Virus record (IMG/VR): IMGVR_UViG_3300045988_161152
DNA length: 64,000 nt
Strand: one strand, 5' to 3'
Source of the DNA: a virus
Taxonomy: Duplodnaviria > Heunggongvirae > Uroviricota > Caudoviricetes
Shown here one piece after another: positions 17,732 to 26,125 of this stretch (position 1 is the stretch's first letter; each line of letters starts with the position of its first letter). Position numbers and translations under genes: made by a program. Under the pieces are notes generated by a model. It saw nothing but the letters and a program-made list of their open reading frames with translations, was not told where the DNA came from and did not search any database.

Positions 17732-18238
17732 TTGAGTATTTTCAATAAACACGCACACCAGGAACGTCCGTACATCGTCATAGTAGATATTGATGGGACG
17801 ATATCAGAGGCAACGGAAGACAGGCTGCATTTACTTCCACCACCTGGCAAAGGTGCATTAACAGAGCACTGGAACGAGTTTAACCTTGCCTGTGACACTG
17901 ATGCTCCCATCACTCCAGTTATTGATATGGTGCGCCAGTTGTCCGGCATTTACACCCTCTGGTTTGTAACCGGGCGCTGTGAGATAGCCAGGGATAAAAC
18001 ACGAGCCTGGTTGCGTAAGCACGTAACAAATGGGGCTGAGCCTTTGCTATCTATGCGTCCTGCCACCGATGACAGAAATGACGGTCCAGCAAAGATTGAT
18101 CTCCTTAAGAAAATTGGTCTAAGTAAAATTGCGTTCGCGCTGGAAGATAAGATTGAAGTGGCGCGTGTATTCAGGAGGCACGGCGTGCTTACGTTAATGG
18201 TCAGGGAGTATGAAAACGCGCTTCTCCATCAACAATAA
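17732..18238 (+). CDS. pap: HAD-superfamily phosphatase (class B acid phosphatase-like)
   Basis: 168 aa from a TTG start with GGAGG RBS; HAD motif I VDIDGT; symbol from recalled P1 gene order. Confidence 0.55.
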   Translation: MSIFNKHAHQERPYIVIVDIDGTISEATEDRLHLLPPPGKGALTEHWNEFNLACDTDAPITPVIDMVRQLSGIYTLWFVTGRCEIARDKTRAWLRKHVTNGAEPLLSMRPATDDRNDGPAKIDLLKKIGLSKIAFALEDKIEVARVFRRHGVLTLMVREYENALLHQQ

Positions 18239-18254
18239 TTGCTCTAATAAATAT
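18238..18254. promoter_or_regulatory. C1 operator
   Basis: ATTGCTCTAATAAATAT (16 of 17 consensus positions) directly after the pap stop. Confidence 0.55.
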
Positions 18255-18428: not shown

Positions 18429-19016
18429 ATGAAAGGCGAAGTGAAAGAGCGCGGCATGATTTTTAACGATGAGATGGTCCGGGCAATTCTTGGCGGGAAT
18501 AAAACACAGACTCGCAGGATTGTTGAAGAAAAATTCTATGGACGGGCAGTGGCCGCAGAGTTGCTTGCCAAGCATTGTCCATATGGTCAACCGGGCGATC
18601 GTATTTGGGTTCGCGAAACCTACCGGGTACATGGCAAAGCGACGGACGTCGCAACGCTGGTTTATCGCGCAAGCGTGCGTAACTCCTGGACAGAACAAAC
18701 GCACCGGGTTCCGGTCGAGGTTTGTAATAAACCAGTATCAGAAAAGTGGACGCCATCAATTCACATGCCGCGCTGGGCATCGCGCATTCTTCTGGAAATT
18801 ACCAACGTGCGCGTTGAGCGGTTGAACGATATCAGCGAATGCGATGCAAGGGCTGAGGGCGCACCAACAGAATCGACCCTCATTGGCGATAAGCATTACC
18901 CAAGTTTCCGTAGCCTATGGAAATCAATTTATGGCGAAGATAGTTGGAACGCTAATCCTTGGGTGTGGGTAATCGAGTTTAAGCGTATTCAGGGGGCAAC
19001 CAGTGAGCAAAATTAA
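18429..19016 (+). CDS. ASCH-domain protein (YqfB-like)
   Basis: MIFNDEMVRAILGGNKTQTRR and C-terminal WVWVIEFKRI resemble E. coli YqfB; start may be ATG 18456. Confidence 0.6.
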   Translation: MKGEVKERGMIFNDEMVRAILGGNKTQTRRIVEEKFYGRAVAAELLAKHCPYGQPGDRIWVRETYRVHGKATDVATLVYRASVRNSWTEQTHRVPVEVCNKPVSEKWTPSIHMPRWASRILLEITNVRVERLNDISECDARAEGAPTESTLIGDKHYPSFRSLWKSIYGEDSWNANPWVWVIEFKRIQGATSEQN

Positions 19017-19707
19017 CTATCAAGAACTGCGCGAGGCGGCGGAACAGGCAACGCAAGATGAATGGGTAGCATATATTTTGCCGGGTCATAACGGCATTTA
19101 TCCTGCGCGCACGTCTGAGGGTAGGCATTGCGGATACTTTATTGACTGGCCTGGCATTGATGGACAAAGGAATGCTGGTGCCAATGCCCGTTATATCGCG
19201 GCTATCCCACCAAAAGTTGCGCTGGCGCTACTGGATAAAATTAAGCACCTGGAGGACACAAATATTGATGCCACATGCCGTATTGCGGAGTTTGAGACTA
19301 ATCTCGCGGCGCTGGTGGCAGAGAACGCCGGGCTGAAACACGCAATGGCCGTAACTCTTGAGCATGTGTCGGTCACGGATGCAGGGCAGGCTGGTGTTGC
19401 TGCAATGATTATCAACGATGCCCTATACCACAGCGAAACTCCAGCTACCGATGCTTTTCTGGCTGAAATTCGTGCGGAAGCACGCAACGAGGGGATTAAC
19501 TATACCGCCAGCCGTCTTGCTGCTGCGTTCAATCACGGATTTATCAATAAGTCTTTGCGTGAAGTTTTCGACGTTACACGCATGATTTTGTCAGCGAAAG
19601 AAGAGTTGGCTAATGAAGCGCATCCGATTGATGGCCTGTCTGGTGAATATGCGGAGAAATCCCTTGAAGAATGGGCGGAACAGATTCGCAAAGGAAGCAG
19701 CCAGTGA
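19003..19707 (+). CDS. Mosaic paralogue family member A
   Basis: 234 aa; shares MSKINYQELREAAEQA with 21002 and PATDAFLAEIRA plus a ...QIRKGSSQ tail with 19991. Confidence 0.6.
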   Translation: MSKINYQELREAAEQATQDEWVAYILPGHNGIYPARTSEGRHCGYFIDWPGIDGQRNAGANARYIAAIPPKVALALLDKIKHLEDTNIDATCRIAEFETNLAALVAENAGLKHAMAVTLEHVSVTDAGQAGVAAMIINDALYHSETPATDAFLAEIRAEARNEGINYTASRLAAAFNHGFINKSLREVFDVTRMILSAKEELANEAHPIDGLSGEYAEKSLEEWAEQIRKGSSQ

Positions 19708-19994
19708 ATATCGACACGACAATAACGATCGATACGCTCCTAAATACCGGTCTGGCACTTCTCGGTTGGCTTTACATCATGTCCCGTACATGGCGATGGC
19801 TGGGTTCCATTTTCCTAAAACAGTGGAAAAAACGGCGCAAACAGGAACTACGCCAGAAGGCATTAGAAGCGTTCTATGACGCATTTGAGCTTAGCCGCAT
19901 TGAACCAGGTACAACAGCCAGGATAGCGACAAAAGGCGACCTGATGATAGTGATGTTCCGACAGGAGAGAGCAGAGAAAGGGGAATCAGCATGA
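19704..19994 (+). CDS. Small membrane protein
   Basis: GTG overlapping the upstream stop (GTGA); hydrophobic segment LLNTGLALLGWLYIM. Confidence 0.45.
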   Translation: MNIDTTITIDTLLNTGLALLGWLYIMSRTWRWLGSIFLKQWKKRRKQELRQKALEAFYDAFELSRIEPGTTARIATKGDLMIVMFRQERAEKGESA

Positions 19995-20704
19995 AATTTT
20001 CCAAATTTTCTGAGTTGGTGAATCGTATTTTGTCCAACAACCACAGCCATCGTCGCGATATGGATGTAACAATCGTTGTTCATTCGCCTGGCAGCATTGG
20101 TTCAACACCTTCAGTTGAGGTTCAGTCAATTCACGCTGGTTTTGATTGGGATTCCGGGAAAGTGCTGATTTTCCCATCACAGCCACTGACCACGCTAACA
20201 CCAGAACAGATTACTGATATCACTGATAGTGTGCGCAAAGGTCAGTCTTGGCACGCATATCAGGAATACAAGAAGCATCAAGAGCAGTTGGAAAAATTGT
20301 CGATTGAACTGGATGCCGCAAAACAGCGCATTGCAGAGCTGGATGGTAATCGCACGGCGCTGGCAGTGGAGAATGCCTCAATGAAGCTGTTTATCAGGGG
20401 CTGTTGCTACGTGTTTGATGGCCAGCAGGATGAAATATCTGATGCGTATATCTGCGCAACAGACGGAGGGATGCCGCAAATTCCAGCCACCGACGCTTTC
20501 CTGGCTGAAGTTCGGGCGCAGGGGGTGGATGCTGCTATAGAAGCTGCAAAAAATCTGGTGGCCCAAGAATATGAGTATAAGGATTTCAAAGCGGCGCAGA
20601 GTGATTGCTGTATGCACCCTGGTTCAGACCGGGTAGGGAAGGTTGAAATGACTGAGTGGTTAGTTGACTTTGCTGCCCAGCTTCGCAAAGGAGGCAACCA
20701 GTGA
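19991..20704 (+). CDS. Mosaic paralogue family member B
   Basis: 237 aa; ATGA overlap with upstream stop; shares blocks with member A. Confidence 0.6.
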   Translation: MKFSKFSELVNRILSNNHSHRRDMDVTIVVHSPGSIGSTPSVEVQSIHAGFDWDSGKVLIFPSQPLTTLTPEQITDITDSVRKGQSWHAYQEYKKHQEQLEKLSIELDAAKQRIAELDGNRTALAVENASMKLFIRGCCYVFDGQQDEISDAYICATDGGMPQIPATDAFLAEVRAQGVDAAIEAAKNLVAQEYEYKDFKAAQSDCCMHPGSDRVGKVEMTEWLVDFAAQLRKGGNQ

Positions 20705-21000
20705 CTGTATGTCTTATTGATAAACGTCGACGTGGGCAACAAATACCATCTGTTGAAATGCCGAATCACACATGGTTTTGCGTACTTGATATCGATGGTA
20801 TGGATACGTTGGTTGACACTCGTCATTACTGCGATACCGCAACAGCTACTCCGGCGAAAGCAAAGAAAATGGCTGCTCTGATAGAAAACTGGACTCCACC
20901 TGATGGTTGGTGCAATGGGAATGATCGAGATTGGCACGAAAAAATGAAGGGCTATATCTGCGATTTTTTACGTAAATGCAACGGCTTCAGGGTGATGTGA
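20701..21000 (+). CDS. Hypothetical protein
   Basis: 99-aa ORF, GTGA-coupled to the upstream gene. Confidence 0.5.
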   Translation: MTVCLIDKRRRGQQIPSVEMPNHTWFCVLDIDGMDTLVDTRHYCDTATATPAKAKKMAALIENWTPPDGWCNGNDRDWHEKMKGYICDFLRKCNGFRVM

Positions 21001-21001
21001 T

Positions 21002-21691
21002 ATGACCAAAATTAACTATCAGGCACTGCGTGAGGCGGCAGAACGTGCAATTCCGGCAATGGAACGCCTGTTAATGTTGCCAGTTGATGATGATCTGATA
21101 AGCGAACAGGAACTTAAAGATTACGGTGTGGATATTGATGCGCTCAACGCCTTCAAATTTCTGGCCGGACCAGAAACCGTGCTGGCACTGCTGGATGAAC
21201 TGGAAAGAAACCAGCAATACATCAAACGCCGTGACCAGGAGAACGAGGAAATTGCGCTAACGGTAGGGAGGCTTCGCGTTGAGCTGGAAGGCAAAGACAG
21301 CAAAATAGCCAATCTTACCGCCGAACGCGATGCTCTTCGTGAAGGTGAGATGGGCGACGCTAGGCATAGCAACACACGGGCCGCAGCTGATATCTACTTC
21401 CAACTGGTCGAGGAGTGCGAAATTCCTGCTGGCGGATCTCTGGTCGAGTACGTTGACGATATGCGCGAGAAGCTGGAAGCCGCAGAGAAGCGCATTGCAG
21501 AGTTAGAAAGTGGTTCTCAGGCACAAAAGTTAGTTGAAGCAATCATTGTTGCGATAGAAAACGAACAGGAAAGGCTTTTTGATGAAGATTACCTAATGGA
21601 TTCGAAAGAATGCATTGACGTAATTCGTGAAGAAGTAAAGCGATGGAATGATTCCCGTGCCGCTGGCATTCGCATCAACGGAGGTGAGTAG
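21002..21691 (+). CDS. Mosaic paralogue family member C (coiled-coil)
   Basis: 229 aa; N-terminus MTKINYQALREAAERA parallels member A. Confidence 0.6.
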   Translation: MTKINYQALREAAERAIPAMERLLMLPVDDDLISEQELKDYGVDIDALNAFKFLAGPETVLALLDELERNQQYIKRRDQENEEIALTVGRLRVELEGKDSKIANLTAERDALREGEMGDARHSNTRAAADIYFQLVEECEIPAGGSLVEYVDDMREKLEAAEKRIAELESGSQAQKLVEAIIVAIENEQERLFDEDYLMDSKECIDVIREEVKRWNDSRAAGIRINGGE

Positions 21692-21863
21692 TGCGTGTGG
21701 CATGTATCGGCTTGTTACCGTACCCGACTCGTTTTTGGGCTTCTGCGCTAATTGCAAAGCCACATGTCCTGATGGCTGACAACATCATCCCGGCACCAAA
21801 GCGCCGCCATACCGGTATTGCAGCGGCACGACGAGCAGCAAAGAGACGCAGGAGAGCAAAGCG

Positions 21864-22040
21864 ATGAAAAACCGTAAGGCAAAACGACTTTTTTTACAGC
21901 GTCCTGTGCGTGTGGTGGAGCTGGTTATTAGCAACCATAAGATAGCGGTACTCCATCCATTTGGTCAGGTGGCTTTTGCCGCAAAGCGTAAGCCTACTGC
22001 GTCACAGAACAGGCGGAAGAAAGGGTACGCTGTAAGATGA
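21864..22040 (+). CDS. Small basic protein, tandem copy 1
   Basis: 58 aa, GGAGAG RBS; MKNRKAKRLFLQR...; stop overlaps the next ATG (ATGA). Confidence 0.45.
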   Translation: MKNRKAKRLFLQRPVRVVELVISNHKIAVLHPFGQVAFAAKRKPTASQNRRKKGYAVR

Positions 22041-22225
22041 AAAACCGTAAAGCAAAGATTCTGTTAGTTCGTAGAAACGCTCCTGGCGTCTGGCAGTGGG
22101 TGAGACTCAGCAACCGACGGATGGGGTTGATGAAATATTACGGGATGATGGATTGTGGTTTTTGCAAAAAGCCCAGCGCGGCGCAAAACCGCTGGAAAAA
22201 CCACTTGCGCACTAAAGGAGAGTGA
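22037..22225 (+). CDS. Small basic protein, tandem copy 2 (paralogue of 21864-22040)
   Basis: 62 aa; MKNRKAKILLVRR...; shares N-terminus and a KKPSAAQNRWK block with copy 1. Confidence 0.5.
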   Translation: MKNRKAKILLVRRNAPGVWQWVRLSNRRMGLMKYYGMMDCGFCKKPSAAQNRWKNHLRTKGE

Positions 22226-22226
22226 T

Positions 22227-22742
22227 ATGGCGTTAACACACCGCGAACTCTGTCAGATTGCGTACAAGTTCCTTAAGCGCAACGGGTTCAAGGTTTGTTT
22301 TCATGACCGCTTTATAGCTGTAACCAGTACCGGAGAACAGCCAGATGCTATGGGATTCAGAAATTCAGCATCATGCCTGATAGAGGCGAAATGTTCTCGT
22401 GCTGACTTGTTGGCAGATAGAAAAAAGCGTTTTCGTAAAAATCCGTCTCTTGGAATGGGCGACTGGCGATTCTTTATTAGTGAGCCGGGAATTATTTCAA
22501 TTGAGGATTTACCACCTGGCTGGGGATTACTTCACGTTGTTAACGGAAGAGTACGGAAAGTACATGGGTGGCCCAAGGGTAATTGCTGTTGGGGTAATCC
22601 TGACGATAAGCCATTTACTGGAAATAAGCAGGTTGAATGCGATTACATGTTATCTGCATTAAGGCGTATGGAGTTGAGAGGGCACCTTAATGAAATATAT
22701 GACGGTGTAATTGTTAATAAGAAAGAAGGAAACGCGGCATGA
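22227..22742 (+). CDS. PD-(D/E)xK nuclease-fold protein
   Basis: Start set at ATG 22227 with AAGGAGAG RBS (ORF track 22155); GEQPD...LIEAKCS motif. Confidence 0.5.
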   Translation: MALTHRELCQIAYKFLKRNGFKVCFHDRFIAVTSTGEQPDAMGFRNSASCLIEAKCSRADLLADRKKRFRKNPSLGMGDWRFFISEPGIISIEDLPPGWGLLHVVNGRVRKVHGWPKGNCCWGNPDDKPFTGNKQVECDYMLSALRRMELRGHLNEIYDGVIVNKKEGNAA

Positions 22743-23749
22743 CCACTATTGCCAAAGATCGACTACTGACAATCAAGCAGTGGCGCGAAACATACGGACC
22801 GGGTAGCAACGTTGTACTGCCAGCAGAAGAAGCGGAAGAACTGGCACGAATTGCTCTGGCATCGCTGGAAGCAGAGCCTGTTCTGTATCAGTCCTGCACT
22901 CGCCCCACTTGGAATAGCGGTGTTCCGTGGACGGAATGGAAAGAACGAAGTCGTGAGTGCTACGAAGACGATTTGCGCTTTACAGACACGCCTGACCATG
23001 CCGGTTGGATATACAAATGTCGAAAATTATATACCACTCCGCCAGCGCCGATAGCGTTAGAGGCCATCGAAAACGCAATTGAATACATCCGCAGTATCGC
23101 TTTTCACATCGATGACGACGATTACCACGGCAAACATATTGCGTATTTCATGCGACAAGCATTGGCCTGGCTGGAAGGGCATTCATGCAGCGACGACAGA
23201 CTGGGTAAGGCCGACAATCAACCCGCATCTGGTAACCAGGCTGCCGAATCCAATCGCGGTAATGAGTGGACCGGCAATCCTGATATTGATAACGCCATCA
23301 TCATGCTCGACCGCATAGATACGGCGGAAAGTTGCGATGATGACCGTATTGAGGCCGTTAAGGCTGTGTTGCGTAGACTGGCAGGCAACTATCCGGATAT
23401 TCCGGATAGTTCGGTGCCAGCGCCAGGAAAGGGCGTCACCGGTGAACGTATCCGCATTAAGCCGCATGTTTATCGCGAACTGGTTAACCGTCTCCACGAT
23501 ACAGCGATCAAGTGTGCTGGCACCCAGCAATTACGAGAAAGAATTAGCCGTGTTTTGGGCGACGTTATTACGCCATATCATCATAAACAAGCCGAGAAAA
23601 GCGGTCTGGAAAGGTGTCATCTTGAGGCAGCATTAAACATTAAGCCGGGGCATACGCTTGGCATTATTGATGCACTGTTGGTTCATAAGATGGCCAGGGC
23701 TTTATTGTCGTTGGTGGACGCTGGTGATACAAGCGAGGGTGAAGTATGA
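22739..23749 (+). CDS. Hypothetical acidic protein
   Basis: 336-aa ORF, ATGA-coupled to the upstream gene. Confidence 0.6.
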   Translation: MTTIAKDRLLTIKQWRETYGPGSNVVLPAEEAEELARIALASLEAEPVLYQSCTRPTWNSGVPWTEWKERSRECYEDDLRFTDTPDHAGWIYKCRKLYTTPPAPIALEAIENAIEYIRSIAFHIDDDDYHGKHIAYFMRQALAWLEGHSCSDDRLGKADNQPASGNQAAESNRGNEWTGNPDIDNAIIMLDRIDTAESCDDDRIEAVKAVLRRLAGNYPDIPDSSVPAPGKGVTGERIRIKPHVYRELVNRLHDTAIKCAGTQQLRERISRVLGDVITPYHHKQAEKSGLERCHLEAALNIKPGHTLGIIDALLVHKMARALLSLVDAGDTSEGEV

Positions 23750-24108
23750 GAGTTGCAGATCACATCAAACACCTTGAAAGAATTATCGAAAACGGTGAAC
23801 TCTTAAGAGATCAGATGAGACGCACGGCAGAAGCCAGGGAGGCGATAATCCGCAGTCAGGCTGGTAAATTAAAGCAATTGTCAGAGATTAACACGCTATA
23901 CAAGAACAGACGTAACCGGGCGGTGATGCGGCTTCAGAAAGCACGTAATGAAATTAAATTGGTGGAGGCAAAACTGAAAAAACAGATCCAGCGTTACGAT
24001 CAGCAAGATGCTTTTTATGCCGCCATCAAGGCGGCTGCTAATGAAATAGGCATCTGGAAGTTGCTGGTGGAGAAAGCAAAGACGAAGTTAAATGCCAACG
24101 AAAGCTGA
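23746..24108 (+). CDS. Hypothetical coiled-coil protein
   Basis: 120-aa ORF, ATGA-coupled; last gene of the operon. Confidence 0.55.
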   Translation: MRVADHIKHLERIIENGELLRDQMRRTAEAREAIIRSQAGKLKQLSEINTLYKNRRNRAVMRLQKARNEIKLVEAKLKKQIQRYDQQDAFYAAIKAAANEIGIWKLLVEKAKTKLNANES

Positions 24109-24164
24109 ACTACAGGTGCCCACCAGCACATACAGAAAATGATTGTTTCCACATCAAGGAGATT

Positions 24165-24187
24165 TTAATGTTTCACTGAAACATTAA
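24165..24187. repeat. Perfect 23-bp palindrome TTAATGTTTCACTGAAACATTAA
   Basis: 11-bp arms around a central C; overlaps the stop of the small minus-strand ORF. Confidence 0.5.
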
Positions 24188-24321
24188 GTAAGCCAGTGCA
24201 TAATTCCATTTTTTACTGACCTTAAAAGCAAAATCAAAACGATGATGAGGATAATAGCCAGAATCTGGCTAATAATAGGCGCATCTAAAAATGCACTCAG
24301 GAACTGAAAAAAAGCGTTCAT
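24184..24321 (-). CDS. 45-aa single-pass membrane peptide
   Basis: MNAFFQFLSAFLDAPIISQILAIILIIVLILLLRSVKNGIMHWLT; AGGA about 10 nt upstream of the ATG; sits in an AT-rich non-coding island. Confidence 0.35.
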   Translation of the reverse strand: MNAFFQFLSAFLDAPIISQILAIILIIVLILLLRSVKNGIMHWLT

Positions 24322-25183
24322 TCAGGTGGTTCCTTGTCAAATGTAAAGGTGCACTTGCTCACGTTGACGTAGAAACCCAACCCCTATATAGTTGGATTCG
24401 GTGAATGAAAGTCGTTAACGTGAGCTTACGGCACATGTTTTCGGAAAAACATCAGGGAACGGCTAATTCCTTGATGCGGGTGGGGTCTGTAATACAGACC
24501 CTATCTATTAACGTCATGATTGCATCTCAAATTTTCTCCTTATCTTCAATTAATCTACATTCATTTCATCTGTTAGCCACCACAATATGTAGAAAATGGC
24601 CCTCTTGCAAGTGCATAACTTTGTGGATAACTCAGGAAGGAAAAAGTGGCTTTCGCGCACCTTCGGTCAGACAAGGTGTCCGGGAAAGTCAACGCAAAGA
24701 AAAAAATTGTTAAAAATAACGTTTGTTGGAATTGTATATTTTTATCCCCTTCAATGGTTAGCATTCCATTAACATCTTTTTTTAGAGACAGAAAAACATA
24801 TCGTAACAACATATATACAGTATTAAGAGGCGAGTATTATCCTGCGGTGGGAATTCTGGGCGCTGTTAGATTCGACTTTCTCAGCAGGATTACATCGTCA
24901 ACTTGCGACGTTGCCGTATGACTTTCGTGTAATAGGTGACAATGATGCGGCTAGTGAGTTACTTGTGAAGTTTTTCGGAAAAGGTTTTGTGGCCTCGGAT
25001 CTTGATGAGCTACAGCAACATGAAGTGTCTAATTTGATTTTTAGCCATAGCCAATAAGCCTCCCTCCTCCATCAAGGCCACAATTTGTGACCTTAAACAA
25101 TTTGTTTTCTGCTTTTTCTTATTTGAGAAAATAACGTTGTTGACAGCTAATAGGCTCGTTGTTGTTATACATGCCTGTATAGA

Positions 25184-25540
25184 TTATGACCGTAAATTAT
25201 TAGCGGATTTTAAGCCATATTCACCGTTGTAGAAATTACTCATGTTCCATTCATTAGGAAGTTCTTTTCTGTCCAATGTATAGTGGCGCACGATATAACG
25301 ATCTTCATCTTCTTCGATGGACAGGCGGACATAGCCAATGTGGATCACCGATACGGGCGGTGTTCGTATTGCATAGATGTCGCGGAGATATACCGGTAGC
25401 TCGACAAATGCATCAGGTGCATCTGTGATGCTCGTTTTTTCACAGTATTCATATAACGCATCGTTGATATCGTTAAGAGATTCATGATCGTATATTTCCA
25501 GGTAATTACCGCGATCGCGATGGTACTCGATTTTAGCCAT
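25184..25540 (-). CDS. Hypothetical protein, second gene of a two-gene minus-strand module
   Basis: 118-aa ORF; start abuts the stop of the upstream 194-aa gene. Confidence 0.55.
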   Translation of the reverse strand: MAKIEYHRDRGNYLEIYDHESLNDINDALYEYCEKTSITDAPDAFVELPVYLRDIYAIRTPPVSVIHIGYVRLSIEEDEDRYIVRHYTLDRKELPNEWNMSNFYNGEYGLKSANNLRS

Positions 25541-26125
25541 TCAAAATCCCCTGTTATCGTTTTGCATTTCTCTAATCCGGTTCAGAACTACTTCATGCTG
25601 GGCTTGGATAGCGGCTTTTTCGTTTTCAAGTCGGGCAATAGACATCTCTAATTCTTTGCTGTACCAGGCGAGTTGGGCCAGGTTCATCCGGTTGTGGTCG
25701 AGAGTTGGAGACACTTCGACGCGCTCCCTTTCTTCCTGCTTTAATGAGAAGAGATTCATCTCATCCCTAGAGGAAAATTCAGCAACAATTTCTTGTTGAT
25801 GATCCGGTCGCTGCGGCATCCTCGCCAGTATAAATGGCGGTTCTTTTGAAAACATGAATGTCGGTTCAGAACGTGTTTTCACCCATCTAGCCTGCTGTCT
25901 TTCGGCAAGTTCACAGGCTTCATCATAGTTATTTGCCAAACCAAGCACGGATGGGCGGTCCCACGCGCCACCATTCAGACAATAAACAACAATTTTCCCG
26001 TCATGTTCTGTAACCCCATAGGGATGGTCCCACCAGGCGTCCAGCTGAGCTTTAGAGCGTTTCTCGTTAGGAGTGCAGTCAAAATTTTTGGGCAATACAG
26101 GATCGAGAGGAATGCGATTAGGCAT
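25541..26125 (-). CDS. Hypothetical protein with C-terminal coiled coil
   Basis: 194-aa ORF transcribed divergently from humD. Confidence 0.55.
   Translation of the reverse strand: MPNRIPLDPVLPKNFDCTPNEKRSKAQLDAWWDHPYGVTEHDGKIVVYCLNGGAWDRPSVLGLANNYDEACELAERQQARWVKTRSEPTFMFSKEPPFILARMPQRPDHQQEIVAEFSSRDEMNLFSLKQEERERVEVSPTLDHNRMNLAQLAWYSKELEMSIARLENEKAAIQAQHEVVLNRIREMQNDNRGF

Follow-up and report, generated by a model that had tools for sequence, protein, structure and literature searches.

Small basic proteins and a PD-(D/E)xK nuclease-fold protein as separately inherited accessory genes in a P1/P7-like phage-plasmid

In the 64,000-nucleotide viral sequence analyzed here (the window), two short genes for basic proteins, s1 and s2, run directly into a gene for a 171-aa protein, N. 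The arrangement resembles that of type II toxin-antitoxin (TA) modules, in which a small upstream ORF overlaps or adjoins a larger, possibly harmful downstream ORF, and the initial annotation likened it to a pair made up of a DNA-binding regulator or antitoxin and a nuclease. The question that this locus raises is therefore whether the small proteins and N belong together. Because each gene occurs without the other in related phages, we consider the locus to be mosaic phage cargo and not a TA or regulator-nuclease pair. The reading that we favor, with a probability of about 0.7, is that s1, s2 and N are independently shuffling accessory modules in an exo-xis-type block, situated downstream of ea22 in a P1/P7-like phage-plasmid and behind a C1-operator-like site. 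The TA-like or regulator-nuclease-like layout would then reflect the normal packing of shuffling accessory genes in such a lambdoid/P1-like block.

Gene layout and genomic setting

Coordinates and translations agree with the initial annotation in that two adjacent small ORFs, of 58 and 62 aa, both start with MKNRKAK and are coupled by an ATGA overlap (4 nt, 22037-22040). The s1 protein ends in ...KKGYAVR*, with its stop codon overlapping the s2 start, and the s2 protein ends in ...NRWKNHLRTKGE*, with the s2 tail containing the ribosome-binding site of N. This site, whose presence had also been pointed out, is AAAGGAGAG at 22214-22222, and its GGAG lies 6 nt from the ATG. The 171-aa ORF does follow s2 immediately, but the gap between the two measures 1 nt and not 2 nt as first described, with the ATG at 22227 placed 1 nt past the s2 stop (TGA-T-ATG). 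Close contacts of this kind are generic in the operon: between 19991 and 24108, 9/9 consecutive junctions are a 4-nt overlap, a 1-nt overlap or a 1-nt gap. The features of the locus are collected in Table 1.

Table 1. Positions of the genes and sequence elements at the s1/s2/N locus
Feature	Position	Strand	Remarks
P1 C1-operator-like site (ATTGCTCTAATAAATAT, 1 mismatch)	18238-18254	+	Overlaps a promoter-like -10 element
Third small basic ORF, 58 aa, GTG or ATG start, pI 12	21691-21867	+	PHROG 13831, E 8.6e-42
21-nt direct repeat, copy 1, GATGAAAAACCGTAA(G/A)GCAAA, at small-ORF starts	21863-21883	+	Copy 2 at 22036-22056
s1, 58-aa basic protein (MKNRKAKRLF...)	21864-22040	+	PHROG 1380
s2, 62-aa basic protein (MKNRKAKILL...)	22037-22225	+	PHROG 1380
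Junction cassette AAAGGAGAG-TGA-T-ATG	22214-22229	+	Ribosome-binding site, upstream stop and next start
N, 171-aa predicted PD-(D/E)xK nuclease related to MmcB and Hjc	22227-22742	+	
336-aa gene, 'EaA protein' in P1-like GenBank records	22739-23749	+	ATGA-coupled to N

A third small basic ORF precedes s1, its start overlapping the stop of the Ea22-like gene and its stop overlapping the s1 start (ATGA). This ORF, which has the C-terminus ...AAARRAAKRRRRAKR, co-travels with s1 in 58 instances and carries no annotation in the RefSeq and GenBank records examined; s1 is annotated as WP_000797290.1 in one RefSeq record, and s2 as WP_000797279.1.

The 1.2-kb stretch around s1, s2 and N recurs at 100% identity in E. 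coli plasmids some 89-119 kb long, and 16 kb around the three genes match records of P1, P7 and SJ46 at about 98%. Together with the flanking genes pmgS, lxr, humD, phd/doc and pacA, this similarity places the window among the P1/P7-like phage-plasmids. The three genes form part of a chain of plus-strand ORFs that extends from about 18.3 to 24.1 kb. Directly upstream of the small ORFs lie genes for a DUF7739 protein and an Ead_Ea22 protein (the latter at 21002-21691), and DUF7739 and Ead/Ea22-like genes are hallmarks of the lambdoid exo-xis region.

The lambdoid exo-xis region is reportedly the subject of work by Wegrzyn and Donaldson on lambda, Phi24B and 933W. According to PMC8614690, it consists of a conserved block whose last gene is ea22 and, beyond that, of genes that differ in number and kind; that paper deals with neither the small basic family nor N, and the word 'nuclease' does not occur in it. 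Like the variable exo-xis genes, s1, s2 and N are tightly packed small ORFs on the same strand as, and downstream of, an Ead/Ea22-like gene, and lie between exo and xis in Stx phages. The maps of two other phages agree with this position: a small ORF lies between ea22 and xis in Stx phage Min27, and in the early-left arm of TL-2011c recT, exo and ssb precede s1, s2 and N. Unlike in the lambdoid phages, the block resides here in a P1-like phage-plasmid, where a C1-operator-like site takes the place of lambda pL.

Fourteen sites resembling the P1 C1 operator occur in the window, where chance would give 0.24. The one listed in Table 1 overlaps the only promoter-like site upstream of the gene chain. 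Between it and the s1/s2/N genes we found no further promoter-like site on the plus strand, the next ones being at 24176 and 24364, and the chain that holds s1, s2 and N is probably controlled from this operator-like site. The arrangement suggests a lambdoid-type block that has come under P1 C1 control, being repressed by C1 and expressed on derepression. The genes of the block would then share a transcript soon after derepression, and their translation would be coupled.

The 171-aa protein N

The structure model of N is confident (pLDDT 86, pTM 0.80), and its core has the alpha-beta-beta-beta-alpha-beta fold of the PD-(D/E)xK superfamily. The closest structural match is the uncharacterized protein SPO1766 (3dnx). 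Nearly all of the matches that follow are PD-(D/E)xK proteins, and they include restriction endonucleases, Can2, AF1548, XisH-like proteins, Hjc, Bax1 and the R2 endonuclease domain. The GEQPD...LIEAK motif on which the initial annotation had based a nuclease fold is present (GEQPD at residues 36-40, LIEAK at residues 51-55) and yields E37, D40, E53 and K55 as catalytic candidates (motifs P39-D40 and E53-A-K55), the catalytic D and ExK residues being placed on the second and third core strands. Residues D40, E53 and K55 are invariant in 35 close homologs; among 44 family members that are 33-56% identical to N, D40 again never varies, while conservation of E37, E53 and K55 is 90% or more. The proposed nuclease fold is thus borne out by the confident model, by the fold matches and by the conserved D...ExK residues, all of which indicate that N is a stand-alone PD-(D/E)xK nuclease-fold protein with its active-site residues intact.

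A profile search of 1.84 billion representative proteins returned 3,259 clusters at E 1e-3 or better, and the family comprises more than 3,000 clusters at 50% identity. N thus belongs to a large PD-(D/E)xK family with MmcB and Hjc as relatives, for which Pfam has no dedicated model: a Pfam scan of N gave no family at E 0.1 or better, PF06319 included. Caulobacter MmcB is the characterized member of the MmcB-like family (PF06319), to which SPO1766, the closest structural neighbor of N, presumably also belongs. By sequence the relation is distant. PF06319 is matched by 6 of the 44 distant relatives of N (best E 2.9e-4), the N profile matches the 3dnx sequence at E 0.3, and a PDB sequence search with N alone retrieved nothing significant. 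N also differs from the MmcB-like proteins by an extra conserved C-terminal part (GWGLL, W122, K134-E137, R146-R147), and its gene is phage or prophage cargo that belongs to an early operon rather than an SOS gene of the chromosome. By the Pfam criterion it is accordingly a sister family to the MmcB-like proteins and not a member of PF06319. MmcB itself has been described as an endonuclease of the PD-(D/E)XK type that guards Caulobacter against mitomycin C (PMC9578287).

N also resembles Hjc and other minimal PD-(D/E)xK structure-specific nucleases in being small and single-domain. Hjc structures are among its fold matches, 9 of the 44 distant family members match the Pfam Hjc family weakly (best E 1.3e-4), and in TL-2011c N lies downstream of recombination genes. 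N may be an endonuclease that requires metal ions and cuts damaged or branched DNA in phage replication or recombination.

The gene for N is mis-annotated as a pseudogene in RefSeq. In RefSeq/PGAP records identical to the window, the intact 171-aa ORF (22227-22742, corresponding to L001 6628-7274 and L002 3628-4274) is unannotated, the entries at this place being limited to a 179-nt 'frameshifted' pseudo-CDS and a partial CDS. PHROG 16308 is a 58-aa version of N. The pseudogene call is probably an annotation artefact that stems from truncated reference proteins. One database hit of 428 aa (P0195) fuses an N-like PD-(D/E)xK domain to an N-terminal Pfam TniB match (E 3.2e-6); in this protein the N family thus appears attached to an AAA+-type ATPase, reminiscent of transposon TnsC/TniB systems.

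The small basic proteins

The s1 and s2 proteins are identical at 20/54 positions (37%; BLASTP E 5e-10, above chance) and both match PHROG 1380 over its full length, s1 at E 6.5e-23 (profile positions 1-60 of 62) and s2 at E 1e-40 (positions 1-62 of 62). Both are as basic as had been stated, with 16 Lys and Arg against 1 Asp or Glu in s1 (pI 12) and 16 against 2 in s2 (pI 11.3). At the DNA level, the first 21 nt alone are recognizable as a repeat (20/21 identical), and the remainder has diverged. The paralogy implied by the tandem duplication that had been proposed thus stands; because the DNA is diverged beyond the 21-nt start repeat, the sequences point to an old duplication, or to two diverged alleles brought side by side, rather than to a fresh tandem duplication.

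Single-sequence and profile searches of 5.8 billion proteins gave about 200 clusters of the small family at 90% identity. All named hits are from Enterobacteriaceae (Escherichia, Salmonella, Citrobacter, Enterobacter and Hafnia), so that in these searches the family was confined to this bacterial group and its phages; its members are labeled only as 'hypothetical' or 'prophage' proteins, without a Pfam domain of their own. Scans of the small proteins gave a single sub-threshold match to zf-C2H2_jaz in Pfam (E 0.096) and no match in NCBIfam or PADLOC. The AF2 model of s2 is weak (pLDDT 66, pTM 0.31) and has an alpha-beta-beta-beta-alpha topology, for which Foldseek found no neighbor in the PDB (best E 0.63). 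A double-stranded-RNA-binding-domain-like (dsRBD-like) reading of s2 was rejected, as it shares this topology but is otherwise unsupported. The 3' part of s2 (22155-22204) contains a 12-nt inverted repeat, GTGGTTTTTGCA / TGGAAAAACCAC, with arms that are 92% complementary and 26 nt apart. It is absent from s1 and probably incidental, and an Rfam scan of 19000-26000 gave nothing at E 1 or better.

The charge of the small proteins suggests that they bind nucleic acid, and within the favored reading they would act on their own as nucleic-acid-binding early factors. A more specific proposal, which we put forward as speculative and rather unlikely, is that they are early effectors whose invariant basic ends (MKNRKAK..., ...QNRWKNH) contact nucleic acid or some host machine, while the beta-rich, fast-diverging core sets specificity and two to three diverged copies cover host or defence variants; alternatively, the small proteins might tune the next-encoded nuclease or small protein. 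If the effector reading were true, PHROG 1380 would be a small modular anti-defence or host-takeover factor.

Distribution, recombination and selection

We took a census of N loci using HMMs for the small family and for N, in 116 fetched loci plus the window (117 in all); the sample includes 80 E. coli viral contigs that are nearly identical and 33 loci drawn from a range of genomes. A small-ORF homolog upstream of N is absent from 76 of the 117 loci, including 33/33 of the non-E. coli ones. One copy is present in 19 loci and two copies in another 19. The remaining 3 have three or four HMM hits, which represent frameshift-split ORFs in two cases and three separate copies in one. A comparison with related phages had been proposed to look at copy-number variation, and the copies of the small ORF indeed vary from 0 to 3.

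The picture is similar when loci are collected with s2 (n=80). Writing s for a small ORF, the arrangements are s in 30 loci, s-s in 10, s-N in 13, s-s-N in 25, and s-s-[746 nt]-s-N and a truncated s-s in one each. N is thus missing downstream of the small ORF in 40/80 of these loci; s-N or s-s-N is found in 39/80, and s-s in 36/80. At least four unrelated genes occur downstream of the small ORF as alternatives to N (a 69-aa Cys-rich ORF and ORFs of 72, 75 and 87 aa), and 51-aa out-of-frame reads after the small ORF are apparently frameshifted copies of the 69-aa gene. Near-identical s2 alleles (98%) are followed by N in some phages and by the 69-aa Cys-rich gene in others. This 69-aa ORF (MAIAASYTMHLYCDCLQCTDGKYK...) takes the place of N in about a third of the loci, via the same junction cassette; examples are found among L117-L196 (e.g. 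L168 and L173) and in Min27 (L198, 3691-3906).

At loci that lack a small ORF, N stands behind unrelated genes ending in ...AAGIRIKGE*, with the same AAAGGAGAGTGA(T/G)ATGGC cassette. On its other side, N is followed by genes that vary by genus (DUF551-like, methyltransferase-like, RusA-like and others) and usually share an ATGA junction with it. The idea that N has a conserved partner downstream was therefore rejected, and the 336-aa 'EaA protein' gene is one of its variable neighbors. In sum, s1/s2 and N are not co-inherited. Since N follows a small ORF in about half of the small-ORF-bearing E. coli loci, the small proteins could optionally interact with N, or with the product of another neighbor.

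A hint of a functional link could come from PHROG 9263 (230 positions), which is matched by s2 at positions 1-61 and by N at positions 62-230; some deposited phage proteins could thus be read as fusions of a small ORF to N. Among the N homolog proteins retrieved there was no in-frame s-N fusion. Long N homologs were considered as such fusions and rejected, being products of upstream in-frame read-through, Ea22 fusions or downstream read-through.

The small proteins might also be promiscuous accessory factors, serving, for example, as nucleic-acid chaperones or recruiters for whichever protein is encoded next (N, the Cys-rich 69-aa protein and others), with two diverged copies widening the range of partners or targets. 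The small ORF always lies immediately 5' of another short accessory gene with the same cassette, two diverged cores stand side by side in many phages, and the charge of the proteins is extreme. Yet the position also fits the general packing of exo-xis genes, and N occurs without small ORFs in most lineages, so that we regard this reading as distinctly unlikely.

Several observations bear on how copies and neighbors are exchanged. The similarity to other phages is interrupted at the s1 start (21869), at the s2 start (22036) and in the conserved s2 tail (22169), and in s2-type alleles dS is 0.14-0.44 at the ends but ranges from 0.65 to saturated in the core. One database protein from outside the window (P0172) is a chimera of an s1-like core (ISNHKRAVIGLFGRVVFAF) and an s2-type tail (AAQNRWKNHLRTKGD), indicative of recombination within the conserved C-terminal motif. 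The generic junction cassette also serves a start variant, MATNNRKAK, and is common to N, to the other genes found behind s2 and to the Ea22-like genes ending in ...AAGIRIKGE*. Because of these breakpoints, the dS pattern, the chimera and the start variant, we infer that recombination at the 21-nt start and in the tail/junction cassette is probably what changes copy number (0-3) and neighbors, the two copies of the 21-nt repeat being a likely crossover site for copy-number change. Such recombination at junctions is the classical lambdoid mosaic pattern. Single-gene modules joined via overlapping stop/start junctions could in this way shuffle independently, as the favored reading holds.

Alternatively, the small ORFs might be non-functional by-products of conserved recombination linker DNA with shared start and tail/junction sequences, in which an open frame passes ribosomes on to the next gene. 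In PHROG 1380 proteins the basic terminal motifs (MKNRKAK.L, SN, QNR.K) are strongly conserved and the cores deeply diverged, the low dS at the ends of the s2-type alleles is consistent with homogenization at the DNA level, the s2 tail bears the ribosome-binding site of the next gene, and the AF2 model is of low confidence. In addition, frameshifted variants circulate in the databases (P0140, P0142, P0143 and P0173), and selection is therefore not absolute. Against this, pN/pS is about 0.3 in frame, clearly below the other frames, for both types of small ORF: 0.28 versus 0.87 and 1.42 out of frame for the s1 type, and 0.31 versus 0.68 and 1.18 for the s2 type. The small-ORF sample contains 40 distinct nucleotide versions among 176 instances, many of them with identical protein, and dN/dS in the core is 0.12 in the closest allele pair. 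Between s1 and s2, 10 of the 20 identical residues use different synonymous codons, with switches between AGC, AGT and TCA for an invariant Ser and between CGC, AGG and AGA for an invariant Arg. Because dS is saturated at the termini and dN is just 0.26, the terminal motifs of s1 and s2 are conserved at the amino-acid level, persisting despite saturated synonymous divergence that includes Ser encoded as both AGY and TCA. An internal SN(R/H)(R/K) motif and a hydrophobic periodicity are also kept across the alleles. This evolutionary evidence identifies s1 and s2 as genes under purifying selection, and it leaves the linker explanation highly improbable.

For the third small ORF upstream of s1, pN/pS is 0.59 in frame versus 0.88 and 1.18 out of frame, and this ORF may possibly be coding as well. 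Positive selection in the variable core was considered and rejected, as dN/dS is 0.12-0.9 where dS is unsaturated, with one near-saturated comparison at 1.2. Being under purifying selection and widely distributed among the Stx phages of pathogenic E. coli, the small basic family is a reasonable target for dissecting how the exo-xis region affects the lysis-lysogeny decision.

That the small proteins are dedicated DNA-binding regulators or antitoxins of N, in a type II TA-like or regulator-effector cassette, is very unlikely indeed, even though small ORFs lie upstream of and are translationally coupled to the nuclease-fold gene, accompany it in 39/80 of the s2-found loci and resemble, together with it, PHROG 9263: the partners separate in 76/117 loci (all 33 non-E. 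coli genomes among them) and in 40/80 loci, 98%-identical s2 alleles precede either N or the Cys-rich gene, stop/start coupling is generic at all nine junctions, Pfam, NCBIfam and PADLOC gave no recognized toxin or antitoxin family (with no Pfam antitoxin domain, and no PADLOC defence model matching s1/s2 or N), and both partners are basic (pI 11.3-12 for the small proteins and 9.3 for N), which sets them apart from typical antitoxin-toxin pairs. The pairing proposed in the initial annotation is hence not upheld. By offset from L001, P1 humD (encoding an S24 peptidase) and the phd/doc toxin-antitoxin pair lie at about 26.3-27.4 kb; phd/doc itself (about 26.7-27.4 kb of the window) is a true TA module carried by the same replicon, in contrast to s1, s2 and N.
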